Shown: positions 12,861 to 36,027, numbered from the stretch's first letter. The stretch is DNA of 64,000 bases from Candidatus Buchananbacteria bacterium (GCA_030650095.1 JAUSEE010000001.1:8199-72198), one strand, 5' to 3'. Translations and numbers: made by a program. The notes: a model not told the origin generated them from the letters alone.

Positions 12861-14072
12861 TTAAAATACAGCTGACAATTGCCACATGGGCAGTATGACA
12901 GCCGCCACAAACCCGCCCACTACTATGCCCAGGATTATCATAATGAGCGGTTCTATCAGTACCGACAAATTAGCCACCGAATTATCAATTTCCCGGCTGT
13001 AAAATTCCGTAATTTTATCCAAAATATCTTCCAATTTGCCGGTTTCTTCACCCACGTTTATCATCTGCGAAACCAAAGCCGGCATATATTTATTAGCTAA
13101 AATACTTTCCGAGAGCGAACCGCCTTCGTCAACATCTTTAATCGTCTGATCAATCATCTCTTCATAGATAACATTGCCCACAACACGCTTAACCACCTTC
13201 AAAGCTCGGGAAACCGGCACGCCGCCCTTGAGCAGAGTATTTAAACTCCTGGTCATGCGCACTACATAAATATTGACGGCAATCGTGCCAAAGCCTGGCA
13301 CTTTTATTTTAAATAGATCAAAGATTCTTCTGCCTTTTATTGTTCTTCTGGTAAAAAAGAAAAAGCCGTTGACAATTGCTACCACTAATATGACAACTAA
13401 GAACCAATAATATTTAAGGAAATCGGCTAGGCCGATTAAAATCCTGGTAACTAGTGGCAGACGCGCTCCCGAATCCTTTAAAACCTGAGTCATTTGCGGA
13501 ACAACAAAAATCATAATAATCAAACCGACAATAAACAAACCGGCCAAGATAATAGCTGGGTAAATCATGGCGCCTCTTACTTTTGATTGCAAATCATAAT
13601 CCTTCCCTTGCTGATCGGCTAAATAAATCATCACCTCGCTCAAGCGCCCGGAACTCTCGCCGGAAGCTATAATATTAGTGTAAAAATCGCTAAAAACATG
13701 GGGATAAGTCGCCATGGCTTGGGATAATTTAGCGCCGCCATCCACCTCATCGGCGATGCCGGCTATGATGGATTTAAAATATTTGTTATCAGACTGTTTA
13801 ACTAATATCCCCAAAGCTTTGACAATGGGCAGATTAGCGTCCACCATCACCGACAACTGCCGGAAAAATATGACTTTTTCCTTAACTTTAACTTTATTTA
13901 AAAAACCAAGAATTTTATTCTCAAAATATTTATAATTTTGTTTTTTAATTTCCAAAACTGACAGTCCCTTTTCCAACAGCAAAATAACCACCACATCTTC
14001 CGATATGGCGTCAACCACGCCCTCAATCAGCTGATTTTTTTCATTTTTAGCTTTGTAGGAAAATAATGACAT
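12861..14072 (-). CDS. pilC: Type IV pilus inner-membrane platform protein (GspF/PilC family)
   Basis: 403 aa, two GspF repeats, three transmembrane segments. Confidence 0.85.
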   Translation of the reverse strand: MSLFSYKAKNEKNQLIEGVVDAISEDVVVILLLEKGLSVLEIKKQNYKYFENKILGFLNKVKVKEKVIFFRQLSVMVDANLPIVKALGILVKQSDNKYFKSIIAGIADEVDGGAKLSQAMATYPHVFSDFYTNIIASGESSGRLSEVMIYLADQQGKDYDLQSKVRGAMIYPAIILAGLFIVGLIIMIFVVPQMTQVLKDSGARLPLVTRILIGLADFLKYYWFLVVILVVAIVNGFFFFTRRTIKGRRIFDLFKIKVPGFGTIAVNIYVVRMTRSLNTLLKGGVPVSRALKVVKRVVGNVIYEEMIDQTIKDVDEGGSLSESILANKYMPALVSQMINVGEETGKLEDILDKITEFYSREIDNSVANLSVLIEPLIMIILGIVVGGFVAAVILPMWQLSAVF

Positions 14073-14082
14073 TGATTTTAAT

Positions 14083-15150
14083 TTATCTTAAAGATGATTC
14101 TAAGATCTTCTTATCGGTGGCGTTATCCAGGGCAACTTCCCTGGAAACTTCCATGGATTTTACTAATTTTGCTAGAACATAATTAAAAGATACCATGCCT
14201 TCATTTCTGGAAGTCTGAATTATATTTTCTAGGCCGGCTACATTGCCACTTAAAATAATGGATTTAATAGCTTCATTGATTATTAAAATTTCCTGGATAA
14301 TGGTTACACCGCCTCCTATTTTAGGAATGACTTTCTGGCAGATTATGGCTTCCAAGGAAGTAGCCAGTAAATCCCTCACCCTTTCCTGGTCATAGGCTGG
14401 AAACATATCCAAAATACGAGCAATCGTATTGGAGGCCGAATCGGCGCTGACCGAGCTAAAAACAAGCGAGCTCCTGGCTATTTCCAGAGCAGGCGGAATT
14501 ACTTCCGGTTTATTCATCTCCTCCAAGAAAAGGACATCGCCGTTTTCTTCTTCAAAATATTTCAAAGCCTCCACAAAAGAATTGGTGTCAAGGCCCACTT
14601 CCCTTTGTTCAATAATGCTCTGATTATTGGTAAAAACATATTCTATCGGATCTTCAATGGTTATAATATACTCTTTACGAGACCTATTTATCTCTTCAAT
14701 CAAAGCGGCAATGGTGGTAGACCGGCCGGCGCCAAAGGGACCGGAAACTATGATAAGACCGCTTTTCCTTTTAACTAAATCAGACAAGATGGGGTTTAAT
14801 TTTAATGATTCCAGCGTTGGGACTTGGAGGGGTATATACCTTAAAGACACCGACAAAAAGCCACGCTGATAAAAAATATTTATTTTAAATCTTAAGTTAC
14901 TATCAAAATTATAAGCCAAGACAATTTCTTTATTGTCTGATAACTTCTTTTTATTCTTGCCGTCAAGCAGAAAATCCACTACGGCTTGCATAAAATCCTG
15001 GGTGATAACCGCCTGATCATCCAAAGAAACCAATTCGTCATCTATCCTTAAAACTGGATTATTGCCAACCGAAAAATGGAGATCGGAGGCCCCCCTTTTG
15101 ACAGCATCGGTTAAAATATTTTTAATGATTAGTTCTTGACTTACTGACAT
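14083..15150 (-). CDS. pilT: PilT-like hexameric ATPase (retraction-type), with an atypical Walker A
   Basis: PilT-size (355 aa) with a PilT-like N-domain. Walker A reads GPFGAGRST (Arg where the Lys is expected). Asp box reads DVLFLEEM. Confidence 0.7.
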   Translation of the reverse strand: MSVSQELIIKNILTDAVKRGASDLHFSVGNNPVLRIDDELVSLDDQAVITQDFMQAVVDFLLDGKNKKKLSDNKEIVLAYNFDSNLRFKINIFYQRGFLSVSLRYIPLQVPTLESLKLNPILSDLVKRKSGLIIVSGPFGAGRSTTIAALIEEINRSRKEYIITIEDPIEYVFTNNQSIIEQREVGLDTNSFVEALKYFEEENGDVLFLEEMNKPEVIPPALEIARSSLVFSSVSADSASNTIARILDMFPAYDQERVRDLLATSLEAIICQKVIPKIGGGVTIIQEILIINEAIKSIILSGNVAGLENIIQTSRNEGMVSFNYVLAKLVKSMEVSREVALDNATDKKILESSLR

Positions 15151-15178
15151 AAGTTTACATCCTAGTAGATTAACTGGT

Positions 15179-15565
15179 TCATTTGATTTTTACCAAATCC
15201 TTTATTTTCGCCACTACTTCGGAGGGCATAAAATGAGCCTTGATTAAATAATCATTGGCTCCCAAACTCAAGCCCCTTTCCACATCGGCTTTCTGGCTTA
15301 AATTGGTTAAAAGGATAATGGGAATATCCTTTAACTTATGATCTTTTTTAATATTTTCCAAAACTACAAAACCATTTATTTTGGGCAAAATCAAATCCAA
15401 AAGAACTACAGCCGGTTTCTTTTTAGAAACCAATTCCAAACCTTTCTCGCCATCATAAGCCACATAAACATCAAAGCCTTCCAACTCAAATTTGGTTTTA
15501 TAAAGATCGGCCAAAAAAACATCGTCTTCTATAATTAAAATAGGAATGTGATTCTTTTTAAACAT
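15179..15565 (-). CDS. Stand-alone response-regulator receiver domain (CheY/PilH-like)
   Basis: IEDD...DGEKGLEL...LLDLILPKINGF receiver motifs; 128 aa; no output domain. Confidence 0.8.
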   Translation of the reverse strand: MFKKNHIPILIIEDDVFLADLYKTKFELEGFDVYVAYDGEKGLELVSKKKPAVVLLDLILPKINGFVVLENIKKDHKLKDIPIILLTNLSQKADVERGLSLGANDYLIKAHFMPSEVVAKIKDLVKIK

Positions 15566-15592
15566 AATATCTATAATAAATTATTAATCTAA

Positions 15593-17338
15593 CTAGCTTT
15601 GGGAAGCTCTGATAATTTCTTCCACCGTGGTGATGCCTTTCAGGCATTTGATGATTCCATCCTGCATTAGAGTTACAAAGCCCTGTTTCTTCATCAAGGC
15701 CCTGACATCATCCATGACAAAATCCCTGGCTATCAAATCCCGGAATTCGCTGCTGATTTCTAGAATCTCGGCCACAACCGTTCGGCTCACATAGCCGGTA
15801 TTGCCGCATTCAACACAGCCGGCGCCTTTATAAAAATCATACTGGCCGCGGAATTCTTTCAAATATTGTTCGGGCATATCTTCTATTTCTTTCATAACTA
15901 TTTTTTCGGCTGTCGACGGCAATTTCATCTTTTGCTTGCAACTCGGGCAAATTTTTCTCACTAGGCGCTGGGCCATTAAAATATTTAAAGTGGAAGCCAA
16001 AAGAAACGGCTCTCCTTTCATATCAATCAAGCGCGGAATGGCTCCCCAAGCGCTGTTAGTGTGAAGGGTGGAGAAAACCAAATGGCCGGTTAGGCCGGCA
16101 TGAACAACCAGCTCGGCGGTTTCATTGTCTCTTATTTCTCCCACCATGATAACATTGGGATCTTGGCGCAAAATAGCTCTAAGGCCCGAAGCGAAATTAA
16201 AGCCTATTTCCGGACTAATCTGCGATTGGTTAATGCCTTCGATATAATATTCAATCGGATCTTCCAGGGTGGTGATATTTATGCCTTCGCCGTTTAGCAT
16301 ATTTAAAACAGAATAAAGAGCAGTTGTTTTACCGCTGCCGGTCGGGCCGGTTAACAAAAATATGCCGTGGGGCTTGGTGATATTATTGTCTATAATTTTA
16401 ATATGATATTCGCTAAAGCCTAATTCGGTAAGATTAGGTATGCCGGCTGAAGTGTCCAAAACCCTCATCACCACCTTTTCGGCATTTAACATGGGGAAAA
16501 CAGAAACCCTCAAATCGATTTCATCGCCGTTTAATTTCATTCTAATACGTCCGTCTTGTGGTTTCCTGGTTTCATCTAATTTTAAATTTGCCAAAACTTT
16601 TATCCTGGAAACAACGGCATTATAAAGATAGCCGGGCAAAGTGATAGTGGTGTGTAAAACGCCGTCAACCCGATACCTCACGCGCCCATCGCGATGTTTT
16701 GGTTCGATATGAATATCAGACGCCCCGCCCTCAACGGCGTGCCGGATTATAACCGAAACTATCTTGGCTACCGGCGCTGATTTTATAACATCAACACTGT
16801 CACCGGTTTCTTCCAAGTTTATATTTTCAGCCTGCTCGCCTTCGGTGAACTTTTCTCGGGCTGATTCCAGCGCTGTGCCGATTTCTTTTTTAAATCCGCT
16901 ATATTGCCTAACAATACTTTGATAATCAGACAAAGAGATGGAGAAATATTGAGGTGTAAGGCCTTGCTGGCCAGCCAAAAATTCAATAGCCTCTTGCGCT
17001 TTAAAATCTTGCGGATTAACCAACCCAACCTTAATAATTTCATCTTGCTTGTCAAAAATAACCATTTCATAGTTTTTAGCCACTTTTTGAGGCAATAGAT
17101 TTAATATTTCCGGTTCCACCTTGGCATCCGATAAACTAATCGACTCCATATTAAAAGCTTGCCCCTTAATTTTCGCGAAATCATCAGGAGAAAATATATT
17201 TTTAGATACAAAAACTTCTTCCGCTGATTTAGCGGAAACTTCCATTTCTTGTTCTACAGCCAAAAGCTGTTCTGATGTTATCAGGCTTTTTTGCAGCAGA
17301 AAATCTTTTATCTGTTCTAATTTTCTTTTATTATCCAT
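15593..17338 (-). CDS. pilB: Type IV pilus assembly ATPase (GspE family)
   Basis: GspE_N domain, Walker A GPTGSGKTT, tetracysteine CPSC...CVEC. Confidence 0.9.
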   Translation of the reverse strand: MDNKRKLEQIKDFLLQKSLITSEQLLAVEQEMEVSAKSAEEVFVSKNIFSPDDFAKIKGQAFNMESISLSDAKVEPEILNLLPQKVAKNYEMVIFDKQDEIIKVGLVNPQDFKAQEAIEFLAGQQGLTPQYFSISLSDYQSIVRQYSGFKKEIGTALESAREKFTEGEQAENINLEETGDSVDVIKSAPVAKIVSVIIRHAVEGGASDIHIEPKHRDGRVRYRVDGVLHTTITLPGYLYNAVVSRIKVLANLKLDETRKPQDGRIRMKLNGDEIDLRVSVFPMLNAEKVVMRVLDTSAGIPNLTELGFSEYHIKIIDNNITKPHGIFLLTGPTGSGKTTALYSVLNMLNGEGINITTLEDPIEYYIEGINQSQISPEIGFNFASGLRAILRQDPNVIMVGEIRDNETAELVVHAGLTGHLVFSTLHTNSAWGAIPRLIDMKGEPFLLASTLNILMAQRLVRKICPSCKQKMKLPSTAEKIVMKEIEDMPEQYLKEFRGQYDFYKGAGCVECGNTGYVSRTVVAEILEISSEFRDLIARDFVMDDVRALMKKQGFVTLMQDGIIKCLKGITTVEEIIRASQS

Positions 17339-17341
17339 GGT

Positions 17342-17629
17342 TTATGGTGTTTTCGGCTTAAACGGATCACCTCGATTCGGGTTGGCTTGGTCAATTGATA
17401 TCGGCCATTCGCCGTAATGCCTTAATTGGCTAAGTTCACTAATGATTTTTTGTTTTAACTCCTTATCAATAGTCGTTCTAAGCAAAGGAGTTGTCACAAT
17501 TTGATAATCATTGCCTAAAACCAATTTCTTGATATTGGGCCAAAATAGCCAGCCAATTATAAAAATAATTATTATTATCACAATAATGGCTAAGAAACTT
17601 TTAGATAATTTTTTATGGCTTAAAATCAT
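17342..17629 (-). CDS. Small pilus-assembly membrane protein, PilP-like. Start taken at the internal Met, which avoids an 83-nt overlap with pilO.
   Basis: Transmembrane helix, position directly after pilO, and a C-terminal GDPFKP motif reminiscent of the PilP R/NPF motif. Confidence 0.4.
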   Translation of the reverse strand: MILSHKKLSKSFLAIIVIIIIIFIIGWLFWPNIKKLVLGNDYQIVTTPLLRTTIDKELKQKIISELSQLRHYGEWPISIDQANPNRGDPFKPKTP

Positions 17630-17633
17630 AATT

Positions 17634-18257
17634 CTACTCACTGGGATAATAATAAGTTGATAATTCCAATTTATAACCGGCTTCTTCCGGCGTGAAACTG
17701 ATGGCTTTGACGTCAAAAATCATCAGACTTGATTCCAAAGCTTCTATGAATCTGCCAAAATTGCCATAATTATTTCCGCCCAAACCGCTGACTTTCATTT
17801 CCAAATCAACTCTTTTTATATGGCCGTCTTTTAAGCCGTTATCCGCCGCCTCACTCGCTTGGATATTTTCCACGATAAAACTATGCTCACTCGCCAATTG
17901 GGTTAATTGGATGATGACCGAAGATAAATCAAACTTTCCAGGCAAGGCCAAACTAAGCTGCCTTTCTTCCTCGGGAGTAAACTCAATTATTTTATTGGAA
18001 TACTGGCTTAAGAATTCGCTATCGGCTTTGAGTTTGGCCACTTCTTCTTGCAAGGCCGTAAAAGATTTATCTTGAGCTGATTTCATTTTCCATTTGGGCG
18101 CAACAATTAAATAATAGCCGACCAGCAAAATAATAATGACAACTAAAACAACAATAAGCTTGAAATATTTATTTAAAGCTTCGGCATATCTTTTACCCGA
18201 TTTGGATTGGTGGTTATTATTTTCCACCGCCTTGTTTATCTCTTTTATCTCGGCCAT
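17634..18257 (-). CDS. pilO: PilO-like inner-membrane pilus alignment protein
   Basis: Single transmembrane helix plus coiled coil, 207 aa, between pilN and the PilP-like gene. Confidence 0.6.
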   Translation of the reverse strand: MAEIKEINKAVENNNHQSKSGKRYAEALNKYFKLIVVLVVIIILLVGYYLIVAPKWKMKSAQDKSFTALQEEVAKLKADSEFLSQYSNKIIEFTPEEERQLSLALPGKFDLSSVIIQLTQLASEHSFIVENIQASEAADNGLKDGHIKRVDLEMKVSGLGGNNYGNFGRFIEALESSLMIFDVKAISFTPEEAGYKLELSTYYYPSE

Positions 18258-18293
18258 CTATGTTGGATTAATATTATGATGTTACTTTTGAAT

Positions 18294-19520
18294 TTATTTG
18301 GTAAAAACCCCGTCAGTTAAAGCCAGATTTATCTCGAATTTTACTCCCTTAACTCCGGCATTATCACCGCTGACAACCTCCAGATTATTGACTTTTATTT
18401 GGCTGACAAAATCATCAGCCTGCTCTAAAGCGGTTATTTGCCGAGCGGCTTTCCTATAGCTATCAGCTATTTGTTCTTCAACCGTATTGCCGCTGCCAAT
18501 GGAGGCCACGGCCGGCAACATGAATTCTCCGGATGTGTCGGCAGTAAATTCGGTATAATAAACATCATCCAGCGTGTATCTTTCCAGCAAGCTAAAGAAT
18601 TTGGTCCAATAAATATGCTTTTGAAGCAATTTATTTATAGCTAATAACTTGTCCTGCAACATGATATTTTTTTGCTGAATATCCTTAAAACCGTTAATAT
18701 ACGAAACTAATTCGCCCTTGTTTTTATTAAGCTGGGAAATTTTTTCTTGAGTGGACTTTTGTTGTAAATCAATGACCGTATAAGCTAAAGTGACTATCAA
18801 GGCCGGAATAACTACGGCTAATATTATGCCGATAATTTGTTGGCGGCCCTTGGGATATTTTCTAAATAAAAGCTCTTCGGGTATCAGGTTTATATCCAAT
18901 TTTGATTTTTCCATTTTAGGAGCGGTGTGATATTTACCCTTTATTTTTTCCGGCGCCTTGGGAGATTCAATTGTCTTTTTCGGCCAGGCTTTTTTATCTA
19001 TTTTCGCCGGCTTTGGAACCCTGGGCTGGGGAGAAAAAATATTTTTCCACTTGGCAAAAAATCCTCTCTTTTTAGGGGTATGGTTGTATTTAAAGTCTAC
19101 TTGCCTCTCCAGCGATTTTCTTATCGGTTCGCTGGGCATCTGTCTGGGCGCAATTTTTTCGGCACTAGGCTGTTTAACCGGTTGCGCTGGACCGGAGCTT
19201 AAAAAATTACCCTGGGGCCTGTATACAGATCGTCCCCTATTTTCTTGATATTTAATAGTCTGGTTTTTAACGGGTTCCGGCCAAGTATTTTTTTGTTCAA
19301 ACAGCGGAGTCTTGGCTAGAGAAGCTGGCTTTATTTTCCGGCCGAAAATTTCCGACCACATGGATCGGATCGGCTTAGATGGCTTTACCTGGGCAGTAGC
19401 ACTATCTTTTTTGCCGGCTGACAAATCAATGGTAAAAACTTTAGGCTTTTTAGCCGCTCTAAGCGCTTCTTTTTGTTCTCTGCTTCTCATTTCTTCCGGC
19501 AGAAGATTTATATTAGCCAT
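18294..19520 (-). CDS. pilN: PilN with a long Lys/Pro-rich insertion
   Basis: N-terminal MANINLLPEE PilM-binding motif; a second DINLIPEEL copy just before the transmembrane helix; C-terminal PilN domain. Confidence 0.7.
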   Translation of the reverse strand: MANINLLPEEMRSREQKEALRAAKKPKVFTIDLSAGKKDSATAQVKPSKPIRSMWSEIFGRKIKPASLAKTPLFEQKNTWPEPVKNQTIKYQENRGRSVYRPQGNFLSSGPAQPVKQPSAEKIAPRQMPSEPIRKSLERQVDFKYNHTPKKRGFFAKWKNIFSPQPRVPKPAKIDKKAWPKKTIESPKAPEKIKGKYHTAPKMEKSKLDINLIPEELLFRKYPKGRQQIIGIILAVVIPALIVTLAYTVIDLQQKSTQEKISQLNKNKGELVSYINGFKDIQQKNIMLQDKLLAINKLLQKHIYWTKFFSLLERYTLDDVYYTEFTADTSGEFMLPAVASIGSGNTVEEQIADSYRKAARQITALEQADDFVSQIKVNNLEVVSGDNAGVKGVKFEINLALTDGVFTK

Positions 19521-19620: not shown

Positions 19621-20739
19621 TTACTCTATATCCCTCATGGACAAGCCCACGGCTATGGCGAACTTAGCGCCCAACCGGTCTAAAATCGGTTTTAATTCGG
19701 TAGGAAAAATAATTCTAGCCCAAGGATCGCCAATATAAGTATTAATATTCAACACTTTAGAAATATAACCTGGCAAATTGCCCAAAAGAGACGAACCGCC
19801 GGTTAAAATTATTTTTTCCACTTTTTTCTTGTTTTGCTCTTGATAAGAATTGAGGGTGTATTTAATTTCGTTTAAAATAGGAGAAAAGGCTTTTTCCACG
19901 GTTTGAGGCAAAGAGTTATCGGCTGTTTCGGAACCCAAGGATAAATCCTGCTTAAATTGCTCGGCTCGGTCAAAATTAACATTCAAACTGTTGGAAATAG
20001 CTCGAGTCATAACCGTTCCGCCCATTTCCAAACTGCGACTTAAAACCGGTATGCCTTTCTCCACCATCGCTATGCTGGAAGTGCTGGCGCCGAAATCAAC
20101 CAGCATAATAGTTGATTTGTCATTGCCCACCAGCGATCTGATTAAGGCAAAATTTTCCGTTTCCAAGCTTAAAAGAGTCAAACCGGCCACATTGAATATA
20201 TCAACATATTTTCTCACCAGGCTCTTGCTGGCCCCCGTGAGCAGAATCCTTAAATTTTTTTGCGGCTTGGAAAAGATCTTGCTCATGGGTTTATTAGCTT
20301 GGTTTTCACCATAGCTTTGACTAAAATCTGATATTTTAGAGCCGTCGCTTTCCTCTATTTCTTCTATTATTTTCCAATCCAATATTATATCTTCCAGCGG
20401 CATGGGAATTATCTTTTTCGCTTCCCAGCTGATAGCCGAAGCTAGTTCTTTTTTAGGCAGATTGGGCAGATTTAATATTGAAGTAAAAACAGAAAAATTG
20501 GGCAAAGCCGCAATAACTTTTTTGGAAGATGTTTTGGCTTTAGCGCATATTTCATTGATAATAGCCGCCGTGCCAGCTGTATCGTCAACCAAATTTCTTA
20601 TTTCAGCCGGCTTTTTTTCTATAAACCCATAAGTCACCAATCTGGGCCGGCCCTTGAAATTAGAAAGTTCAATCACCTTGATAGATGATGTTCCTATATC
20701 AATTCCTAAATAACTTGATTTTGAAGAAAAAATACCCAT
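19621..20739 (-). CDS. pilM: PilM actin-like ATPase
   Basis: LGIDIGTSSIKVIEL phosphate-1 motif and actin fold length. Confidence 0.85.
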   Translation of the reverse strand: MGIFSSKSSYLGIDIGTSSIKVIELSNFKGRPRLVTYGFIEKKPAEIRNLVDDTAGTAAIINEICAKAKTSSKKVIAALPNFSVFTSILNLPNLPKKELASAISWEAKKIIPMPLEDIILDWKIIEEIEESDGSKISDFSQSYGENQANKPMSKIFSKPQKNLRILLTGASKSLVRKYVDIFNVAGLTLLSLETENFALIRSLVGNDKSTIMLVDFGASTSSIAMVEKGIPVLSRSLEMGGTVMTRAISNSLNVNFDRAEQFKQDLSLGSETADNSLPQTVEKAFSPILNEIKYTLNSYQEQNKKKVEKIILTGGSSLLGNLPGYISKVLNINTYIGDPWARIIFPTELKPILDRLGAKFAIAVGLSMRDIE

Positions 20740-20763: not shown

Positions 20764-22569
20764 TTAGTAGGCAAAATCCCTTATGACCGGCAAACCTTCT
20801 ACAAAACCGCTCAAAGCTTTGGGCGGATTGGCTGTTAGGCGGCCATCATAAATAACTCTTTCAGACCCTTGTAAAATTTCAGCAAAAGTTCGGCCGAAAT
20901 CAAAGGCTTTAGCAATCACTAAACCTAAAACGGTAAAAGATTTATCGGAATCGCCGGAAAAAAATACACCGCAGCCGTTTTGTTGGTATTTATGATAATC
21001 AGGGCTAGATGAAGCTGATAACTGGCAAGCTGTGACTCCATCGCCTAAAACTACAAATACGCCAACAACATCCGTGACACTGGGATCAATAATAACATCG
21101 CCTTTTACTATCCACACCACGGAAGCTAATTCATTTAATTTTGAAGGAATGCTTGAACTGTAAGAAATATTACTTTCAATCTTTAAATTGCCATCTACAA
21201 TTATTATACCATTTCCTGGCACATTAGCGCTACCATTTACAAATTGCAGTTGACTGGTAATTTGCAGATTATCTTTAAAATGATAAACCTCACCTTTTAA
21301 TACGTCTCCGCTGGGCCCAGTCCAAGAACTTTGCGACAAATCATTAACTATTTGTCCGTATTTATTTCTGGTTCCACCGGATGCTACTTTATTAATCATG
21401 CCAGCCATATCAATTTTACCCAAAGCATTCCTATAAATACCTCCGCTAGGTGATTTCTCTAAAAAACCGGTATCCACGCCTTGCACCAGACCGCTGGCGA
21501 TATCTTCGCAATTTTGGGATTTGATGTTGGCATTAATATCTTCCGCCAAGATACAATAAGTGGCATTGTTGCCGGAAGAGCCGGCTTTCTGCCTCACCCA
21601 TTTGGGCGTATAAATAGAGCCATAAAGAGTTTGCAGCCAAGGAAAGACAGTATAACCGGAGCCGAATTCGGAATTAAAATGCACCCAACCGGCTCCGTTC
21701 AAGCCATCACCCGTTCCATTCCAGGACCAGCCCACTAATTGGCCATCGCCCAGATTTTTGTTGACACCATAGAGTTCACAACTAGTGCATTTGCCATTGT
21801 AGCCGCCATCGGTATTGCAAACTATTCTAGATGTGCCAGAAACTGCTCCACTTATCTTGTGGCAATCGGAACAACTGGTGCAAATATTGCCACTGCCGTT
21901 TACTACTGATTCTTCGTTGGGATTGGGTATGTTAACGCCGTCAAAATTAGTTTTGGTAAAACAAGTATTACAACTGTCAAATTCCGTATCTGAATAAGCT
22001 AAACAGGGCGGCACTTCCACCGGCACAGGCGGCGTGCCTTGCATCACAATAGTCCACTGTGTGCATTTGGGCTGACAATCGTAGCAAGCTTCGCCAAAAG
22101 ACGCTCCCTGATAACTGCCACGGCCCAGTTTCATCCAGCCATCGCCGTCCAAAGATAATACTTTGGCCCAGCCGGTTATCTTGCCGGTTAAACTGTCCAT
22201 GGTGGTATCCAAACCTCCAGTGGGAGGAGCGCCCAAGCAACCGACGCTGGAATCGCCTCGGCCATTGCCAAAACAAACCCAACCGACATTCTCCGACCAG
22301 CCATAACCGGAAATATTGTTGCCGGAATCTATTTTAACGCTGTAATCTACTCCGCTGGAAAGACATTCACCGGGATTAAGCAACAAGCAATTGTTGGAAT
22401 TTAAAGATATCCAGCCATAATTATCCGACCAAAGCCAGCCGGCAAAAGAAAAAGTTATGCCTTGTGATTCAACCGGCCTAAAACCATAACCAAATAATCC
22501 AACCAAGCCCACTAAGGCCACGATCAGAATAATTAAGATTGGTTTAATTATTTTATATGTTAAGAGCAT
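20764..22569 (-). CDS. Secreted or signal-anchored Cys-rich protein with repeated Gly-Trp motifs. Hypothetical; lies upstream of pilM.
   Basis: N-terminal transmembrane helix; repeated motifs GWISLN, GYGWSENVGWVCFG, GDGWMKLG, GWSWNGTGDG; 601 aa. Confidence 0.5.
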   Translation of the reverse strand: MLLTYKIIKPILIILIVALVGLVGLFGYGFRPVESQGITFSFAGWLWSDNYGWISLNSNNCLLLNPGECLSSGVDYSVKIDSGNNISGYGWSENVGWVCFGNGRGDSSVGCLGAPPTGGLDTTMDSLTGKITGWAKVLSLDGDGWMKLGRGSYQGASFGEACYDCQPKCTQWTIVMQGTPPVPVEVPPCLAYSDTEFDSCNTCFTKTNFDGVNIPNPNEESVVNGSGNICTSCSDCHKISGAVSGTSRIVCNTDGGYNGKCTSCELYGVNKNLGDGQLVGWSWNGTGDGLNGAGWVHFNSEFGSGYTVFPWLQTLYGSIYTPKWVRQKAGSSGNNATYCILAEDINANIKSQNCEDIASGLVQGVDTGFLEKSPSGGIYRNALGKIDMAGMINKVASGGTRNKYGQIVNDLSQSSWTGPSGDVLKGEVYHFKDNLQITSQLQFVNGSANVPGNGIIIVDGNLKIESNISYSSSIPSKLNELASVVWIVKGDVIIDPSVTDVVGVFVVLGDGVTACQLSASSSPDYHKYQQNGCGVFFSGDSDKSFTVLGLVIAKAFDFGRTFAEILQGSERVIYDGRLTANPPKALSGFVEGLPVIRDFAY

Positions 22570-22641
22570 TAATCTTGGTAAAAAATAAAAATTATTCTTT
22601 CAATTTAAAGTATTATGGCTCTGTTTGATAAGAATGTTGGC

Positions 22642-25600
22642 TTATAAATTACAACAATAAATTCTTTGTTCTTGAGTGCCACCCGCACCAACTTCTCTAA
22701 TGTCAACGCCAGCCATATACTGCACGCCAGGACATACCGCTCCAAGTTGACTCCAACCTGTCCAAGTACAATTCCCTCGAGAATTACTATCCGCTGTGAT
22801 ATTGCCACTCATAGTTATGCTGCCATTTGAAGTGGAATTACCATCAAGAAATAAGTCACCTGATATTCCCGTATTGTCGTTAATAAATAATCTGCCCGAA
22901 TTAGCTGTACCGTCATTGTGAATGCCGTAGCGGACATCCATCCAATCGTCAACTAAAACATCACTTTCACCAAAACCTGGCCAAATTGAACTAATAATAG
23001 AATTGCCGTTGGTCTCTAGCCGCATAGTCATATTGTGATTGCCCAAATTATCACTGGTGGCAGCGGCATTAGCCGGAGCCCAGGCCGAACCGTTCCAAGT
23101 TAGAACTTGGTTGCTACTTGGAGTAGTCGCCGAAATTACGCGTCCTTGCAATTGATTAGCATTCCATACAGCCGAACCGATTTGAGCTGAAAATTGAGTG
23201 CCACTTAGTGTTAAGCCGCTACCAGCCGTATAAGTGTTGCCAGAGCTTGGAGTTGACGGCACCCAACCCAATAATGAATCATAAGTCAATACTTGTCCGG
23301 CGGTTGGACCACCAGACCACCCATCAGAAACATTACGCCCTAATAATTTATTGGCGTTCCATATAGCCGAGCCAGCTTGAGCTGAAAATTGAGTGCCACT
23401 TAGTGTTAAGCCGCTACCAGCAGAATAAGAAGTGCCGCCCGTGTCAGCTGCCGGAGCCCAAGATGAGCCGTTCCATTTCAAGACTTGTCCGCTGGCCGGA
23501 GCGGTAACCGCAATTGAGCGTCCTTGAAGCTCATTAGAATTCCATAGGGCCGAGCCAGCTTGAGCTGAAAATTGAGTGCCAGTTAAAGTTAAGCCGCTAC
23601 CAGCAGAATAGGTGCTACCACTTGTGGGCGTGCCGCAAACCAAGCCGCCATTGAAGCCCGTGACATATTGGCCAGTCGAACAATTGGAGTTTGCGATCCT
23701 TGCCACCGGCACAGAACCGACAGCTAAGGTTCCGGACTGATCCACTCGGAATATATCGGCGTTATTGGCGCTATTTCTAATATTAAATGGACTCCAACCG
23801 CTAGCTGAAATTAATCTTAACCTCTCCCCATTGGGAAATTGGTCACTGCCATCAATTTGAAGTTTAGCTCCTGGACTAGTAGAATTTATCCCCACTGATC
23901 CAACTTGTGTAATGGTAAGAATTTTTTCTCCACCATAAGCACTTGCCTGTTCAATATAAAAATTTTTATAATCATTCCATGCGGAATATATTTCCCATGT
24001 TGCGGTATCATCTGTTTGTAATCTCAAACCTGATTTGCCATTTCCAGGCACACTACCGCCCTGGAGTGTTAGCTGGGGTCCATTAACATCGAGCACATGT
24101 AATTTGGTATTAGTTGTGCCAGGCTGGCCAATACTTAATTGCCCTTGGATATAAGCTCCATCCACAATACTTAATTTCCCACCGTAATCAGTGCCATCAT
24201 TATGAAGATTGCCCCTTACATCCATACTGTCATTAACCACCACATCGGTTTCGCCAGTGCTTAGATAGTTAATAATTTGTTGGCCATTGGTACTTAAAAC
24301 TTGAGTCATGGTGTGATTACCTAAATTATCGGCTCCACCACTAACTGTCCGCCACTCGGCATTACCAGTATTATCAATAGCTGTTAAAACTTTATTATTG
24401 GACGGACTGCCATAATTAATCTGAATTGGGCCTTCAATCCTAAGTTTATCATTTCCATCACCCACCCAAATAGTATCAGCACCGTTACCAGTGCTATAAA
24501 TTGAATTTGTATAAAGACTGCCAGCGCTTGATAAAAACACATCGCCAGCAACATCCAGTCTACGATTAGTAGACGGATTGGTTGTACCAATACCAACCTG
24601 GCCTAAAGCATTGCTAAATATTACTGAATTACCAAGAGTATCGGCTGCCGTAAATTTCGGCACATAATTAAGTGTTCCACTACCGCCGATTCCACCGGCG
24701 GCGCCACCCGCCAAACTAACCCAACCTGTGGCAGTACGGCCTTCAAAACCAGATCCTGTATAACGGATTGTCCCAGGATTGTTATTAGTCGTGTTGCCTA
24801 ATTTAACCGCCCCATTAACTTCTAATTTTTCCGCCGGTGACATAGTCCCGATGCCGACATTGCCGCCGTTTTTAATAATCATTCTAACATTACTATCTAG
24901 AGTGACATTATTAATATCATTTGCCGCTCCGGAGGGCGCCGTAGAAATCAGCCAATCGCCGCTTGGATTGCCATCACTGTCGGCGCTAAATGAAATTCTT
25001 CCGCTCGGTCCGTCATATTCGTAATACCAATTTCCCGTCACCCTGTCCCAATTAGAATTGGAAAAGATGCCGCTGGAAAACTTATCGGCTGAAGTGTAAG
25101 CACCTAATAATTGAATGACGCCCCCGCCGGCGCTGGAATTGTTGGTATTGGGAGAAATATTTAGTGTGGGAGAATAAATAGCCACTACGCCATTTTGATA
25201 TATTGTCATTTGATTGCCGGCACCGTCGCCTCCGCCCAAACTCCAAAAATTTAAGCTCTTGCCGTTTTGATCAACATATATGCCCCAATGATCATTATCA
25301 TTTCCGCCATACTGCAACTGAAGTTCCGGATTTTGAGTATAATCAGAAATTCTAGCCTGTGCGATCCCGGTAGTATCATCATTAATCTCTAATTTTACTT
25401 GCGGACTCGCTGTGCCGATGCCAATTTTGCCATTTTGGCTGATATAAAATCTAACAACGCCATTGGACATTGGGTCCCCATCCTTGGCGTTGGATTGACG
25501 CAGACTAAAATCGCCATATTGGCTCATACTGGTACCTATTGCCCAGTTCCTATTTCCACTATCATTAAACGTGTTATAAAGACCCAAAGTGGCATTGACG

Positions 25601-26418
25601 CCTGATATGGTTAGTCTTTGCTCCGGACTCGCTGTGCCAATGCCGACATTCCAACTCAAATCATTGGGATAAAGTGATGAACCTGTTTGAGTAAAGTAAC
25701 CAGCGCCGGAGCTAACCGGCCAACTGGATTTGCAATTATTGCCAATGCATAATTCACTGGCGCTGAAATGCCCGCTGGAAGTGGCATTGCCACCGGTATC
25801 AACTATAAACCTGTTGGTTCCGCCTTTTTGTAAAAGTAATAAGCTGCCGGCGGAAGCTGAAGCGCTGATATTGCCATAAAGCAAATTCTGTCCCGCTCCC
25901 AAAGTTTCGGCCAAACCGCCAAACATCAATTGTTTGCTAACTTGTAAATTACCATAAACATTCAAACCAAATCCAGTGGCGCCGACTGCCCAATTGCCAA
26001 GATTAAAATTAGTAGAACCGGTTCCATCAACTCTAATAGCTTTACCGTTATTTACGTAAATATCCTTGGTCGTACTGACATTGCCAGTTATTCCAACATT
26101 ACCGCCAAATAGAGCATTGCCGCCAACACTGATTGAACCGGGTTGCGAAGATGGATAATTAAGATAAACCGGAGTATAAATACTGCCGCCGGTTATCGTG
26201 CAAGTGGAACAATCCAGAGATTCGTGCGGGGTTGGTAGTCCAGCTGCGGGACGGCAAATACCGCCACAAACAACATCTGCGCCTTCACACACTAAATCAC
26301 CCTGACTTGCCGGGCAATGAGAAGCCAATACCGGTTGAGGTGAAATAAAAGCCAGAGTTAGAACAATAAGAGCAAGAGAGGTTAGTGATAAGCAATGGGA
26401 TGCTAATTTTAATGACAT
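22642..26418 (-). CDS. Giant secreted repeat protein (1258 aa), tail-fibre/beta-helix-like, with three tandem ~60-aa repeats
   Basis: Signal peptide; recurring xGIGTxSPxxKLxVxG motifs; three copies of the repeat YSAGSGLTLSGTQFSAQAGSAIWNxN; ends in -CCNL. Confidence 0.6.
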   Translation of the reverse strand: MSLKLASHCLSLTSLALIVLTLAFISPQPVLASHCPASQGDLVCEGADVVCGGICRPAAGLPTPHESLDCSTCTITGGSIYTPVYLNYPSSQPGSISVGGNALFGGNVGITGNVSTTKDIYVNNGKAIRVDGTGSTNFNLGNWAVGATGFGLNVYGNLQVSKQLMFGGLAETLGAGQNLLYGNISASASAGSLLLLQKGGTNRFIVDTGGNATSSGHFSASELCIGNNCKSSWPVSSGAGYFTQTGSSLYPNDLSWNVGIGTASPEQRLTISGVNATLGLYNTFNDSGNRNWAIGTSMSQYGDFSLRQSNAKDGDPMSNGVVRFYISQNGKIGIGTASPQVKLEINDDTTGIAQARISDYTQNPELQLQYGGNDNDHWGIYVDQNGKSLNFWSLGGGDGAGNQMTIYQNGVVAIYSPTLNISPNTNNSSAGGGVIQLLGAYTSADKFSSGIFSNSNWDRVTGNWYYEYDGPSGRISFSADSDGNPSGDWLISTAPSGAANDINNVTLDSNVRMIIKNGGNVGIGTMSPAEKLEVNGAVKLGNTTNNNPGTIRYTGSGFEGRTATGWVSLAGGAAGGIGGSGTLNYVPKFTAADTLGNSVIFSNALGQVGIGTTNPSTNRRLDVAGDVFLSSAGSLYTNSIYSTGNGADTIWVGDGNDKLRIEGPIQINYGSPSNNKVLTAIDNTGNAEWRTVSGGADNLGNHTMTQVLSTNGQQIINYLSTGETDVVVNDSMDVRGNLHNDGTDYGGKLSIVDGAYIQGQLSIGQPGTTNTKLHVLDVNGPQLTLQGGSVPGNGKSGLRLQTDDTATWEIYSAWNDYKNFYIEQASAYGGEKILTITQVGSVGINSTSPGAKLQIDGSDQFPNGERLRLISASGWSPFNIRNSANNADIFRVDQSGTLAVGSVPVARIANSNCSTGQYVTGFNGGLVCGTPTSGSTYSAGSGLTLTGTQFSAQAGSALWNSNELQGRSIAVTAPASGQVLKWNGSSWAPAADTGGTSYSAGSGLTLSGTQFSAQAGSAIWNANKLLGRNVSDGWSGGPTAGQVLTYDSLLGWVPSTPSSGNTYTAGSGLTLSGTQFSAQIGSAVWNANQLQGRVISATTPSSNQVLTWNGSAWAPANAAATSDNLGNHNMTMRLETNGNSIISSIWPGFGESDVLVDDWMDVRYGIHNDGTANSGRLFINDNTGISGDLFLDGNSTSNGSITMSGNITADSNSRGNCTWTGWSQLGAVCPGVQYMAGVDIREVGAGGTQEQRIYCCNL
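23060..23640. repeat. Three near-identical ~190-bp tandem DNA repeats inside the giant gene
   Basis: A core segment ...cttgagctgaaaattgagtgccacttagtgttaagccgctaccagc... recurs three times with 1-2 substitutions. Confidence 0.8.
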
Positions 26419-26453
26419 ATTTTTAATTAGAAATAATTTAGAAATAATAATTT

Positions 26454-27569
26454 TTATTTACAGCAAGCAAAGACCTTAGAGTAATTGCAAGATTTTAAAA
26501 GCGCCTTACCGCCTGTGGCGCTAAATTGCCAAACAGAAGCAATGGAATCACTAGTAGCCACATTCCAACCTCCACAATCATTGGCAGATTTAGCAAACTC
26601 CGGCGAACCACTATTTATCCAAGCTTCTGTGCCACTGGGCATGGCTACACCCGAGCGAATGCTGTAGAGAATTTCTTCGGCGCTGCAAACATGGCTGCCG
26701 GCTATAATTGTATTGCATGTGTCATTGGCGCCGACATAACCGCCTTGGTTGCCATTAAAAGTTTGAGTGGTAACTCCCTTATACTGCCCCAAACCGGCAC
26801 CGGTATCGGCTAAACATTGGCCGGCATCGGTACAAAAATTAGAAGCCGTTACCACGCCAGCGCTGGAAAACTTAACCCGGTCATTGCCGCTGCTCCAAAA
26901 TCTTAAATCATTAGTGCCATTGCCAGCCGGGCCATCATGATAAATGCCCCAATAAGCTCCAACTCCAGCTACGCTTTGAATGTCAATTTCGGCATTAGAA
27001 ACGGTGTTATAGATATGTAAATCCTTATTAGGAGTATCTGTGCCTATACCTATTTTTCCACTTTCGTGAACTCTAAAAACCGGGTTGCCAGATTCATTTT
27101 CTATATTTAAATAAGAATAACCTCCAGCAACCTCACGAGTTATATATAATCCCTCTTTATTACTTGGATTTCCCATATTTATGCTTAATTTAGCAAAAGA
27201 TAGTGGCCAAACCCCAGTTAAAACCTCGCCAATGCCGACATTGCCACCATCATAAAATATGCCGGTCGTCGTGGCTTTCCAGGTTAGAACATCAGCCCAG
27301 GTTGTTTGGCAATCAGTGCCTCCTGTGCCAAAGCATAATTCACTGGTGTTAATGGTTGTTCCTATTGTTAACCCGCCTGATTTTGTTTGATCTATTGGCC
27401 CGGCATTAAGCGGAGGAGCAATATTGCCGGAGGGCGGCGGCAAGGTTGGCTCTTGCCAAACGGCCAAGGCAAAATTAAAGCTGATTGAAAACACAGCTAA
27501 AATAACAGCGGCAAAGATGAAGCCGGCTAAAAACGAATACAATTCCCCTCTGTTTTTATTGCCTTCCAT
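26454..27569 (-). CDS. Secreted paralog of the giant repeat protein (371 aa)
   Basis: Signal anchor; IGIGTDTPNKDLHIY motif; ends in -ACCK. Confidence 0.55.
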   Translation of the reverse strand: MEGNKNRGELYSFLAGFIFAAVILAVFSISFNFALAVWQEPTLPPPSGNIAPPLNAGPIDQTKSGGLTIGTTINTSELCFGTGGTDCQTTWADVLTWKATTTGIFYDGGNVGIGEVLTGVWPLSFAKLSINMGNPSNKEGLYITREVAGGYSYLNIENESGNPVFRVHESGKIGIGTDTPNKDLHIYNTVSNAEIDIQSVAGVGAYWGIYHDGPAGNGTNDLRFWSSGNDRVKFSSAGVVTASNFCTDAGQCLADTGAGLGQYKGVTTQTFNGNQGGYVGANDTCNTIIAGSHVCSAEEILYSIRSGVAMPSGTEAWINSGSPEFAKSANDCGGWNVATSDSIASVWQFSATGGKALLKSCNYSKVFACCK

Positions 27570-27585: not shown

Positions 27586-27614
27586 TTGACTTATCAACAG
27601 TTATAATATACAAT
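27586..27614 (+). promoter_or_regulatory. Candidate sigma70-like promoter for lemA
   Basis: ttgact, 17-bp spacer, tacaat, about 100 bp upstream of lemA. Confidence 0.3.
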
Positions 27615-27714
27615 TTTATTATACAATAAAATCGTGATAATAAGAAGTAAGTTTTATTTATTATAACATAAAATCAACTTCCAATTAAAGCGATCTAATA
27701 ACTAATTAAAAAAT

Positions 27715-28272
27715 ATGGAAAATCTCATTTGGATTATCTTGGCGGCCATAGTAGTAATAGCCTTCTGGCTAATCGCTGTCTACAATGGCTTAATCACTCT
27801 TAAAAACAGAACAGATGAAGCTTGGTCCGACATTGACGTCCAGCTCAAAAGACGTTATGATTTAATCCCCAATTTAATAGAGGCAGTCAAGGGTTACGTC
27901 CAGCATGAACAAGGAACTTTTCAAAAAGTTGTAGAAGCCAGAAACGCCGCCATGAACCAGTCTGGCAGTGTGGAAGACAAAGCTAAAGCGGAAAATATGC
28001 TTTCTTCAACCTTAAAGTCTATTTTTGCCTTGGCCGAAAGCTACCCTGATCTAAAAGCCAACCAAAATTTCTTAAAGCTTCAAGATGAGTTATCCGATAC
28101 CGAAAATAAAATCCAAGCCTCCAGAAGGTTCTACAATGGCAACGCCAGGGATTTCAACATTAAAATTGAAGTTTTTCCTAATAACTTAATAGTTAACATT
28201 TTGAAATTCAAAAAATTTGATTATTTTGAAGCCGAAGCCGGAGAAAAAGAAAACATTGCCGTAAAATTTTAG
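27715..28272 (+). CDS. lemA: LemA family membrane protein
   Basis: N-terminal transmembrane helix followed by a conserved LemA core (NGLITLKNRTDEAWSDIDVQLKRRYDLIPNLIE). Confidence 0.85.
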   Translation: MENLIWIILAAIVVIAFWLIAVYNGLITLKNRTDEAWSDIDVQLKRRYDLIPNLIEAVKGYVQHEQGTFQKVVEARNAAMNQSGSVEDKAKAENMLSSTLKSIFALAESYPDLKANQNFLKLQDELSDTENKIQASRRFYNGNARDFNIKIEVFPNNLIVNILKFKKFDYFEAEAGEKENIAVKF

Positions 28273-31845: not shown

Positions 31846-32320
31846 TTGTCATCCCGAGCCTATCCTTACTGTCATTGCGAGGCACGAAGCAATCCCGTGT
31901 GATATGAATATATCTGTCATCCCGAGCGTAGTCGAGGGATCCCTTTTTATTTAATATATAATTCCTCTTGTTACTTTTGGTCCGCCAAAAGTAACCAAAA
32001 GCTCGCGAACGTAAAAAATCATATCATTTGGCCTCCCGATATATCGGGAAGCACAATATTTTTTAATGTTCGCCTTATTTTATTATAATTTTATAAATAA
32101 ACATGGCGACAATTGAAAAGACTGTCATTGCGAGGGAGCGGAGCGAACGAAGTAATCTTATGTTTATATCACCTGGGATTGCTTCGCTATGCTCGCAATG
32201 ACTTCTTGAAACATTTTGCGGCCAAAAGGTTTCAAGAGGATATTTGGCGGACCAAAAGTAACAGAAGAAAATTTCCTTGGCTTGTTATTATAAAAAATGT
32301 TATAATAAATAAATAATTTA
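31846..32320. repeat. Composite intergenic repeat region A. It contains hairpin modules gtcatcccgagc..., gtcattgcgagg...gaagcaatc (31871-31895 and 32124-32202), ttgttacttttggtccgccaaaagtaacc..., gcacaatattttttaatgttcgcc... and ttttgcggccaaaaggttt. Paralogous to region B.
   Basis: Multiple 20-60 bp blocks identical or near-identical to blocks in 38940-39650. Confidence 0.8.
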
Positions 32321-34253: not shown

Positions 34254-34331
34254 GTCATTGCGAGGTACGAAGCAATCCTGTGTTTAATAAACCAGAAGAT
34301 TGCTTTGGTCGTTTCACTCCCTCGCAATGAC
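34254..34331. repeat. Palindromic hairpin element (family gtcattgcgagg...gaagcaatc / gattgctt...cctcgcaatgac)
   Basis: 24-nt arms with imperfect complementarity, read directly. Confidence 0.8.
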
Positions 34332-34352
34332 AAGAAAGCCATTTACCTCGTC

Positions 34353-35111
34353 ATGAACAATGGTATCCTAAATAACCAAAATATAAAAATGCTTAGGCAT
34401 AGAAAACCAAATTATTTAAAATTTATTTTGTTGGTACTGGGAGTTATATTTATTTCTTTTCTAATATTGGCTATGTTCACTCGTCCACTGGAAACAAAAA
34501 GCGATCCCCTGGCTGATGCTTTAAAAAATTTTAACCCCCAGTCAAATATCGAATCATCCAATCTTATAAGTTATGTTAAGAAAAATATCATAACCGAGCC
34601 AACTGTTAACCCTGATTCGCCTGTTTTAGGGCCCGCTGATGCTCCCGTAACCATATTTGAATTTTCTTGCTACGGTTGTCCCGCCAGCCGGGATATCCAG
34701 CCAATTTTAAAAGAGGTACTGGCCAAATACCCGGATAAAGTTAAATTGGTTTGGAAAGATTTAACCCTGCCCGATCTTTACCCTCAAGCCGAACTGGCCC
34801 ATTTAGCTTCCAGATGCGCCCAGGAGCAAAGCAAGTTTTGGCCATATCAAGAACAGCTTTGGCAAAATCAAAATGATTTTTCACTCAACAATCTAAAGAA
34901 AATCGGCCAAGATATTGGCCTCAACGCTTCTACACTAAATGATTGCATCACTAGTAAAAAATTCCAAAACTTAATAGACGCCGATGTCAGCGAGGCTGCC
35001 CAGTTGATGATTTCCGGCACTCCCCATTTTTACATCAACAGCCAAGAAATATTCGGCCTAGCCACTTTGGAAGATTTTGAAACTGTTATAAATGCAGAAT
35101 TAAACAGATGA
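34353..35111 (+). CDS. DsbA-family thiol:disulfide oxidoreductase, membrane anchored. The start is uncertain (34353 or 34389); the track's 34305 start lies inside the hairpin repeat.
   Basis: Transmembrane helix and a thioredoxin fold with a CYGC active site. Confidence 0.65.
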   Translation: MNNGILNNQNIKMLRHRKPNYLKFILLVLGVIFISFLILAMFTRPLETKSDPLADALKNFNPQSNIESSNLISYVKKNIITEPTVNPDSPVLGPADAPVTIFEFSCYGCPASRDIQPILKEVLAKYPDKVKLVWKDLTLPDLYPQAELAHLASRCAQEQSKFWPYQEQLWQNQNDFSLNNLKKIGQDIGLNASTLNDCITSKKFQNLIDADVSEAAQLMISGTPHFYINSQEIFGLATLEDFETVINAELNR

Positions 35112-36013: not shown

Positions 36014-36027
36014 CAATTAAATATTTT

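Follow-up and report, generated by a model that had tools for sequence, protein, structure and literature searches.

A predicted secreted protein family encoded beside pilM and its neighbouring variable fibre-gene slot at the head of a type IV pilus cluster in Candidatus Buchananbacteria

We analysed a 64,000-nucleotide stretch of DNA from Candidatus Buchananbacteria bacterium, an ultrasmall member of the Patescibacteria (GCA_030650095.1 JAUSEE010000001.1:8199-72198; hereafter, the window), focusing on three consecutive genes, designated A, B and C. At its 5′ end, these genes open a type IV pilus (T4P) cluster that spans approximately 19.5 kb on the minus strand, from position 27569 down to 8101. 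Open reading frame (ORF) calls placed the three genes, encoding proteins of 371, 1258 and 601 residues, respectively, in one orientation directly upstream of pilM, exactly as a sequence-only reading of the window had claimed. Exact protein-database matches to the window proteins, from a Candidatus Buchananbacteria metagenome-assembled genome, carried locus tags Q7K65_00170 to Q7K65_00180. Downstream of pilM, the cluster continues with a pilN-like gene, pilO, a small ORF, pilB, a response-regulator gene, pilT, pilC, the major pilin gene, a 135-aa ORF, pilD and four minor-pilin-like genes. The gene between pilB and pilT encodes a single-domain response regulator (15179-15565, minus strand), and its position is kept in most related clusters. 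On the opposite side, a divergent lemA-htpX-clpB group begins 145 nt upstream of A. The gaps between A and B, B and C, and C and pilM measure 35, 72 and 24 nt. No terminator-like site was found inside them by a scan for promoters and terminators, which is itself weakly informative as it returned fewer sites than in shuffled sequence. A, B and C are most likely transcribed together with pilMNO.

Subsequently, a systematic scan in which each GTDB species was represented by a single genome yielded 67 loci with a C match, and we searched these with a PilM hidden Markov model built from ten sequences. In 63 of the 67 loci, the C match was followed by a co-oriented pilM at a distance of at most 370 nt, and in one further locus after a gap of 565 nt. 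Two contigs end too early, and the single exception is a C locus with 7 kb of downstream sequence and no pilM. Overall, pilM follows C in 64 of the 65 testable loci, which bears out the association with pilM that had been proposed from gene position in this one genome. Furthermore, nine additional look-ups of C relatives (11 loci; from 61% down to ~26% identity, or sharing only the C-terminal module described below) revealed pilM downstream in all nine clusters. It was the very next gene in eight of them; in the ninth, the two genes lie ~6 kb apart, with an AbiEii insertion, a signal peptidase and a Gly-rich protein of 1370 aa between them. The linkage holds where recJ/RNase H lie upstream in place of lemA/htpX/clpB, and it is kept in the module-only relatives P0098 (999 aa, Laminin_G_3), P0351 (1030 aa) and P0343 (1887 aa, DUF2341). 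The record titles of the scanned loci name Buchananbacteria, Falkowbacteria, Uhrbacteria, Portnoybacteria, Parcubacteria and 'Patescibacteria group'. Many third-party annotation (TPA) bins with this cluster are titled 'uncultured Gammaproteobacteria bacterium' (L016, L020, L023-L025 and others), and single bins are titled Vicinamibacterales (L065) and Acutalibacteraceae (L074); these titles are probably wrong, or the contigs mis-binned.

C had been described as a Cys-rich protein with repeated G-W motifs, and counting upheld the description, with 20 cysteines and eight G-W dipeptides that form four pairs of the GWxWSxxxGW type. Within the window, the motifs of A, B and C are confined to these three genes. 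C is acidic (53 D+E versus 38 K+R) and has no sequence match in Pfam, NCBIfam, PHROG or the PDB; a PDB search with a profile of 86 relatives likewise gave only chance-level hits. For A, B and C together, sequence searches of Pfam, NCBIfam and the PDB returned chance-level matches only, the PHROG fibre hits described below aside. A word-indexed search retrieved 127 relatives of C, all from Patescibacteria, and an exhaustive profile search enlarged the family to 7,707 clusters at 50% identity with E ≤ 1e-3, of which 543 remained at E ≤ 1e-30. Distant relatives, proteins of 450-1,900 aa, match profile positions ~250-577 only and always at their own C-terminus; the family is thus defined by a C-terminal module of ~330 residues. 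Ahead of this module, the long relatives bear Laminin_G_3, DUF2341, FG-GAP or PKD domains. In the searchable literature, we found neither the C family nor this cassette described.

The C-terminal module contains a beta-solenoid (residues ~400-575) and a tail (576-601) ending in ...GRLxANPPxxLxxFxEGLPVIRDF. The last 26 residues are the best-conserved region of C, with 85% identity among close relatives and 68% among those at middle distance, and the signal peptide is the least conserved; no transmembrane segment was found at the end of C (...LPVIRDFAY). The N-termini of 86 + 121 relatives displayed the n-, h- and AQA-type c-regions of a Sec-type signal peptide, and none of them carried a prepilin motif (G↓FxxxE). 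Consistently, neither A, B nor C matched the N_methyl Pfam model; the genuine pilins of the cluster do carry the class III motif. We infer from these N-termini that C is secreted with cleavage of its signal peptide.

An AlphaFold2 (AF2) model of C, built from an 86-sequence alignment, reached a predicted local distance difference test score (pLDDT) of 88.3 and a predicted template modelling score of 0.81. It comprises an N-terminal helix corresponding to the signal peptide, four small GW-pair beta units and a C-terminal beta-rich domain; a pilin domain is absent from the model. Between GW units 3 and 4 lies an insert of very long strands (residues 161-177, 182-209 and 226-240; pLDDT > 89). Conserved CxxC pairs (C162/165, C200/203, C230/233/236 and C261/264) are located at the ends of 17-28-residue strands in this region (residues 151-266, ~21772-22119), and could form zinc-ribbon-like knuckles or a disulfide ladder in a modelled beta ribbon of ~9 nm. 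The Cys-rich insert has grown to 34 cysteines in some C relatives. Comparison of the model with the PDB by Foldseek ranked ice-binding-protein (DUF3494-type) beta-solenoids best (E 2e-3, probability 0.99), with nine ice-binding-protein structures among the top hits (target-normalised template modelling (TM) score 0.38-0.48), and also retrieved ComZ (PDB 6QVI, E 2.5e-3). In a viral structure library, a DUF3494 protein ranked first. The DUF3494 Pfam model has no sequence match in C, the solenoid resemblance being structural and weak. Moreover, the Pfam model for the PilY1 beta-propeller (Neisseria_PilC) did not match C, whose C-terminal domain is modelled as a beta-solenoid.

The interval between lemA and C forms a variable slot. 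Fibre genes of the A/B type, recognised by GIGT motifs or BLAST similarity, fill it in ~36 of the scanned loci as one to three large co-oriented genes. Where lemA is visible, in 21 related loci, 19 hold fibre-type genes in the slot, and P0140, the best long relative of B, which was found independently of C, shows the same order of lemA, fibre gene, C and pilM. More distant lineages have an empty slot (L004, L005, L040-49, L044 and L048), and still others encode one very long protein that joins extra domains to the C module, such as the 1887-aa DUF2341 protein between lemA and pilM. An Invasin_D3/Big_1 protein occupies the slot in one related cluster. Together, the recurrence of C relatives beside pilM and of A/B relatives in this slot supports the earlier view that the three genes are not random cargo. 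Identity to the nearest relatives amounts to 80-89% for LemA, 78-89% for PilM, 61-71% for C, 44-57% for A and 30-38% for B, the last in fragments only; this steep drop across the slot is what diversifying selection and the exchange of modules would be expected to produce in surface proteins.

Homologs of A, 14 in number, all derive from Patescibacteria, and those with known context all head T4P clusters (the window, L001, L011/L083/L085, L017, L022 and L034). The alignment of A relatives keeps VLA↓AWQEP, and A is probably cleaved after (V/F)-L-A. The mature N-terminal segment, residues 38-70 (W-Q-E-P-T-x2-PP-x-G-N-I-APP-L-N-x-G-x3-Q-x-K-S-GGL-T-I-G; hereafter, the WxEP segment), is common to the first fibre gene of many related clusters, including L002_878 and L010_904. 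A motif of the same kind, W-x-x-P-x3-PP-x-G-N-x-APP-x-N-x-G-x3-Q-x-K-x-G-x-L, also starts small unrelated secreted proteins in the metagenome loci L089-L092. Neither pilM nor a C gene was present within the flanks fetched for L089, L090, L091 and L092. The motif thereby appears to be a more general N-terminal module.

A (residues 108-240) and B (residues 255-625) contain fibre-like modules. B contains four exact [VI]GIGTxxP motifs and one degenerate copy, and the coding pattern GGNATHGGNAC occurs six times in the window against 0.93 expected, with five of the six copies on the coding strand of B (four) and A (one). The A region bearing these motifs shares 27% identity with B residues 221-395 (whole shared module ~190 aa, E 2e-6); the proposal that A is a paralog of B holds for this one module and fails beyond it. 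A matched the PHROG tail fibre phrog_18345 (E 4.8e-6), and B matched phrog_9942 (E 1.3e-7) and phrog_18345 (E 2.8e-5), in each case partially and in the repeat modules only. We also considered the intramolecular chaperone Peptidase_S74, which Pfam found absent from A and B, though present in many B relatives. The recurring GIGT repeats that had been ascribed to B are real and their tail-fibre likeness is weakly supported by PHROG (E 1e-7 for B), without the accompanying chaperone; their beta-helix character is putative. Because many B relatives in other phyla are tail-fibre-domain proteins, named 'tail fiber domain-containing' and carrying Peptidase_S74, the fibre modules are generic building blocks and not pilus-specific.

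B has no close ortholog, the best match reaching 39% identity over 15% of its length, and it is a mosaic whose pieces match two separate genes of related clusters. Its N-terminal Cys-rich head aligns by BLAST, over residues 40-168, with the N-terminal parts of L001_834 and L011_790, and the tandem repeats and the terminal mini-domain have their counterparts in L001_941 and L011_798. The tandem unit reads Y[ST]AGSGLTL[ST]GTQFSAQ...GQVLxWNGxxWxP; at the DNA level, a gap-free repeat finder identified three copies (23072-23620) that are 81-83% identical, and Tandem Repeats Finder reported no DNA tandem array in the A-B-C region. The G+C content is 0.44-0.46 across gene B (window positions 22001-26000) compared to ~0.39-0.41 on both sides, which could reflect either a Gly/Ala/Thr-rich composition or imported modules.

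Both A and B terminate in a Cys-Cys pair (-FACCK and -YCCNL, respectively), which the sequence-only reading had noted correctly and had regarded as a possible sorting or attachment signal. The last ~110 residues of A were modelled at pLDDT ~75-80 with the element order b-a-a-b-b-b-b, and the top 50 Foldseek PDB hits of this domain were all C-type-lectin-like domains (CTLDs), with probabilities up to 0.99 and weak E values of ~1e-2. Neither Pfam Lectin_C nor other CTLD families matched A. The domain contains six conserved cysteines and an invariant W317-I318-x-x-G321 that resembles the WIGL motif. In CTLD folds, the canonical disulfide connects the first helix to the last strand; in A, C285 is located in the first helix (277-288) and C369/C370 in the last strand. 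DUF1554, suggested for the A family by the UniRef name of P0122, was rejected, as none of 11 members matched PF07588 at E ≤ 1. We also looked for a diversity-generating retroelement acting on the lectin-like tip of A and found no template/variable repeat pair anywhere in the window. In B, the two terminal cysteines belong to a mini-domain, C-x-W...C-P-x-G...(A/T)-G-V...Y-C-C-(N/E)-L, that is kept in L001_941, L011_798 and P0235, the first two being the gene that precedes C in their clusters.

Neither terminus (...KVFACCK in A, ...RIYCCNL in B) includes a hydrophobic segment, a basic or charged tail, or an LPXTG/PEP-CTERM-type signature. Since the cysteines of A fit the CTLD framework and those of B close a conserved four-cysteine mini-domain, we concluded that the CC termini are probably structural disulfide cysteines of terminal domains. 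The idea of a sorting signal is not supported, as no transmembrane segment or tail follows the pairs; the termini are indeed conserved, in 10 of 11 A-family proteins (-CCx) and in the three relatives with the B mini-domain, probably in a structural capacity. The window also encodes a DsbA-like oxidoreductase (34305-35111, plus strand) and a membrane-anchored thioredoxin (CPHC; 3599-4195, minus strand), which fit the conserved cysteines of A, B and C, and DsbA-like genes are found near the cluster in L002, L009, L011 and L014 as well. Genomes of the candidate phyla radiation (CPR) are enriched in DsbA/thioredoxin-type oxidoreductases (PMC6744442).

Table 1. Positions of the genes and protein features at the pilus locus, numbered from the first letter of the window
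Feature	Position	Strand	Basis or description
Gene A	26454-27569	minus	ORF, 371 aa; predicted secreted, fibre-like; first gene of cluster
A residues 1-37, hydrophobic signal/anchor helix	27459-27569	minus	sequence reading; AF2 helix 3-37
A residues 38-70, conserved mature N-terminal segment	27360-27458	minus	invariant alignment columns
A residues 108-240, two 'GIGT' tail-fibre-like modules	26850-27248	minus	motifs at residues 108 and 170; PHROG
A residues 260-371, C-type-lectin-like domain ending -FACCK	26457-26792	minus	AF2, Foldseek
Gene B	22642-26418	minus	ORF, 1258 aa; mosaic, predicted secreted, tail-fibre-like
B residues 1-75, signal peptide (1-32, ...VLA↓SH) and Cys-rich head	26194-26418	minus	sequence reading
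B residues 255-625, four [VI]GIGTxxP fibre modules	24544-25656	minus	motif search
B residues 931-1125, three tandem ~62-aa units	23044-23628	minus	protein repeats; DNA direct repeats D2/D4
B residues 1212-1258, C-terminal 4-Cys mini-domain (~47 aa)	22645-22785	minus	conserved in relatives
Gene C	20764-22569	minus	ORF, 601 aa; predicted secreted; member of large unnamed pilM-linked family
C residues 1-36, Sec-type signal peptide	22462-22569	minus	relatives' N-termini
C residues 40-300, four GW-pair beta units and Cys-rich insert (151-266)	21670-22452	minus	motifs, AF2
C residues ~270-601, family-defining C-terminal module	20767-21762	minus	profile matches, Foldseek, conservation
pilM, conserved downstream partner of C	19621-20739	minus	PilM_2, E 2e-41
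Remaining T4P cluster	8101-19520	minus	Pfam; prepilin-like N-termini read off translations
lemA, divergent, left border of variable slot	27715-28272	plus	LemA, E 2e-59
Promoter-like site in the 145-nt lemA/A intergenic region	27613-27640	minus	weak; consensus match 9 of 12 only

Several further features of the window lie outside the pilus cluster. A gene for a 503-aa large serine recombinase (1428-2939, plus strand) is flanked by 95-nt inverted repeats (1276-1370 and 2787-2881, 97% complementary), and its 3′ end overlaps tRNA-Ser(gga) (2871-2959, minus strand); it may belong to an integrative or invertible element. A giant protein of 3017 aa (52737-61790, minus strand) has a CBM_4_9 match only, an 892-aa protein (49832-52510, minus strand) is TrbL/VirB6-like, and positions 35108-36900 (plus strand) contain two T4SS_pilin/TrbC-like genes, one fused to Peptidase_M15. 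These genes suggest a CPR-type surface system resembling a type IV secretion system in the same window. Additionally, an element of ~56-72 nt (TGTCATTGCGAGG...CTTCGCT) recurs in direct and inverted copies at 31886-32202, 34290-34332, 38261-38330, 39011-39072 and 39475-39596, and looks like a miniature inverted-repeat transposable element or a repetitive extragenic palindromic element.

The conserved linkage to pilM, the modular build, the Sec signals without a pilin motif and the lectin and fibre domains of the neighbours point to C as a pilus-associated adhesin or adaptor. We give slightly better than even odds to a model in which C serves as a non-pilin adhesin or adaptor linked to the pilus, much as PilY1 does elsewhere, and A and B serve as exchangeable host-recognition fibres. 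According to this model, C, which is not a pilin, would be exported by the Sec pathway with cleavage of its signal peptide. Its C-terminal module would dock it to a conserved partner of the pilus system, most plausibly a minor-pilin tip complex or, alternatively, the envelope machinery, and the part ahead of the module would be the binding end, formed here by GW-repeat beta units and a long Cys-rich beta ribbon and in relatives by Laminin_G_3, DUF2341, FG-GAP or PKD domains. A and B would likewise be Sec-exported proteins of swappable modules, A with a lectin-like tip and B with tandem fibre repeats and a 4-Cys knob, and may represent fast-diversifying surface adhesins that recognise host or prey cells and are co-produced with the pilus. 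The DsbA-like system with genes close by would oxidise the cysteines of their CC termini. The analysis itself establishes the gene order, the size of the family, its conserved linkage, the domain folds and the lack of pilin and sorting motifs; secretion, attachment to the pilus, a function as adhesins and recognition of hosts are roles that we would assign to A, B and C by inference.

Under the adhesin model, the C family, which lacks a Pfam, NCBIfam or PHROG model, is in kind a T4P accessory adhesin, and it can be set beside several characterised systems. Like PilY1/PilC and MshQ-type adhesins, C is large, has a Sec signal and no pilin motif, is encoded in a T4P cluster and joins a conserved C-terminal module to a variable front. 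Laminin_G_3 and DUF2341 domains are typical of MshQ. Unlike PilY1, C lacks the beta-propeller, its conserved module is a solenoid, its gene precedes pilM and it belongs to a monoderm-like CPR bacterium. ComZ, the competence pilin found at the pilus tip of Thermus thermophilus (6QVI), similarly places a solenoid of the ice-binding-protein type in a T4P protein, the nearest fold of the ComZ solenoid being the ice-binding protein FfIBP (PMC6561018). However, the ComZ solenoid is inserted in a GspK-like pilin fold, whereas C has no pilin domain and an N-terminal Sec signal; ComZ binds DNA, whereas C is acidic; and no sequence similarity between the two was found. In cultivated Patescibacteria, T4P mediate host binding (PMC12206443, PMC9894109), and PilX2 of Nanosynbacter lyticus TM7x is needed for normal host binding and was proposed to be a PilY1-like adhesin (PMC12206443). 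PilX1 and PilX2 resemble C as large proteins of a Patescibacteria T4P locus without a PilD signal, but they differ in their pilin-like 'lollipop' N-terminus with a beta-propeller or jelly-roll and in being encoded among pilins. Tapirins of Caldicellulosiruptor are secreted non-pilin beta-helix adhesins encoded beside the T4P locus of a monoderm (bioRxiv 10.1101/359786); in contrast to C, they bind cellulose and occupy another gene position, and the fold match is at chance level (6n2b, E 0.69).

For A and B, the nearest likeness is to phage tail fibres, with which they share GIGT-type modules, tandem fibre repeats and mosaic exchange of tips, and from which they differ by the lack of S74, the Sec signals and a conserved chromosomal locus without phage genes. 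C-type-lectin-like tips are known in intimin/invasin and in Mtd of a Bordetella phage. A is comparable to these in being an elongated protein with a distal CTLD-like domain, and differs in having no Pfam Lectin_C match and no diversity-generating retroelement repeat nearby.

Several observations weigh against the adhesin model. The physical tie of A, B and C to the pilus is deduced from gene linkage, and synteny among related genomes can partly reflect shared descent. PilY1-type genes normally lie among the minor pilins, whereas a distance of 10 kb separates C from the four minor-pilin genes of this cluster. C is about as conserved as PilN and PilO, which would fit a machine part too. The structural matches of C are weak (E ~1e-3, query-normalised TM < 0.2) and cover the solenoid only, and the AF2 model of A, with an overall pLDDT of 53.9, is poor except for its final 110 residues. 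Finally, the fibre modules and the N-terminal motif of A occur outside T4P clusters too. The suggestion made from position, that all three are pilus-associated adhesins or tip proteins, accordingly fared unevenly: the conserved linkage to pilM speaks for it, and the presence of the fibre modules in many non-pilus proteins of other phyla speaks against it.

The alternative that fares best, which we judge unlikely while giving it appreciable weight, is that A and B are ordinary surface fibres in a recombination-prone slot, their position reflecting shared ancestry with no functional tie to the pilus. It would account for the variation in gene number and content, the lineages in which the slot is empty, and the same modules in non-pilus proteins of many phyla, with the N-terminal motif of A found far from any pilM. 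However, the fibre genes abut C and pilM in the same orientation in ~36 species-level genomes despite identities of 30-50%, the intergenic gaps are short and without terminators, and in other lineages adhesion domains are fused straight to the C module.

A second alternative, rather doubtful in our assessment, regards C as a structural part of the machine, namely an extracytoplasmic collar or conduit by which the filament of these monoderm-like cells would pass the cell wall and the S-layer, and which would functionally replace the missing PilP/PilQ. C is almost always found beside pilMNO, its conservation is similar to that of PilN/PilO, its model contains a very long rigid beta ribbon, and CPR genomes lack PilQ (PMC6744442). 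Nevertheless, relatives swap the whole N-terminal half for binding domains and range from ~450 to 3,000 aa, which would be unusual for a fixed machine part, and C has a cleavable signal peptide without a membrane anchor; ring formation by C is hypothetical.

A more far-reaching form of the adhesin model, which we regard as a long shot, envisages the C module as a new pilus-docking domain that, in Patescibacteria, replaces PilY1 at the tip and recruits A and B, perhaps through the N-terminal WxEP...QxKxGGL segment, in effect a 'pilus armed with tail fibres'. Marginally less credible still is the notion that the T4P machinery, working in the manner of a type II secretion system, exports A, B and possibly C through the wall as exoproteins, as for TcpF and CofJ; they would then be pilus cargo and not pilus components. 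The shared operon with the machine and the Sec signals on all three proteins would agree with this, and the conserved terminal peptide of C could be a recognition tag, but no homology to TcpF or CofJ was found, and fibre architecture with lectin tips typically means cell-attached adhesins. That the genes are a prophage remnant, with tail-fibre cargo left beside the pilus operon, is very improbable: the PHROG tail-fibre matches and the slightly raised G+C over B would fit, but the slot contains no other phage genes, its chromosomal position is kept in dozens of species, signal peptides are present and the S74 chaperone domain is absent.

Cultivated Patescibacteria all live attached to other microbes, and T4P are needed for this lifestyle, with the host-recognition molecules largely unknown (PMC12206443, PMC9894109, PMC11880426). 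Should the far-reaching form of the adhesin model be true, these organisms would possess a retractile pilus with swappable receptor-binding fibres for catching host cells. As a genomic marker, the conserved module beside pilM identifies the locus together with the variable slot next to C. If the C family and the hypervariable cassette of lectin-tipped fibres are adhesin and host-range determinants, they would be targets for understanding host specificity in a quarter of bacterial diversity.

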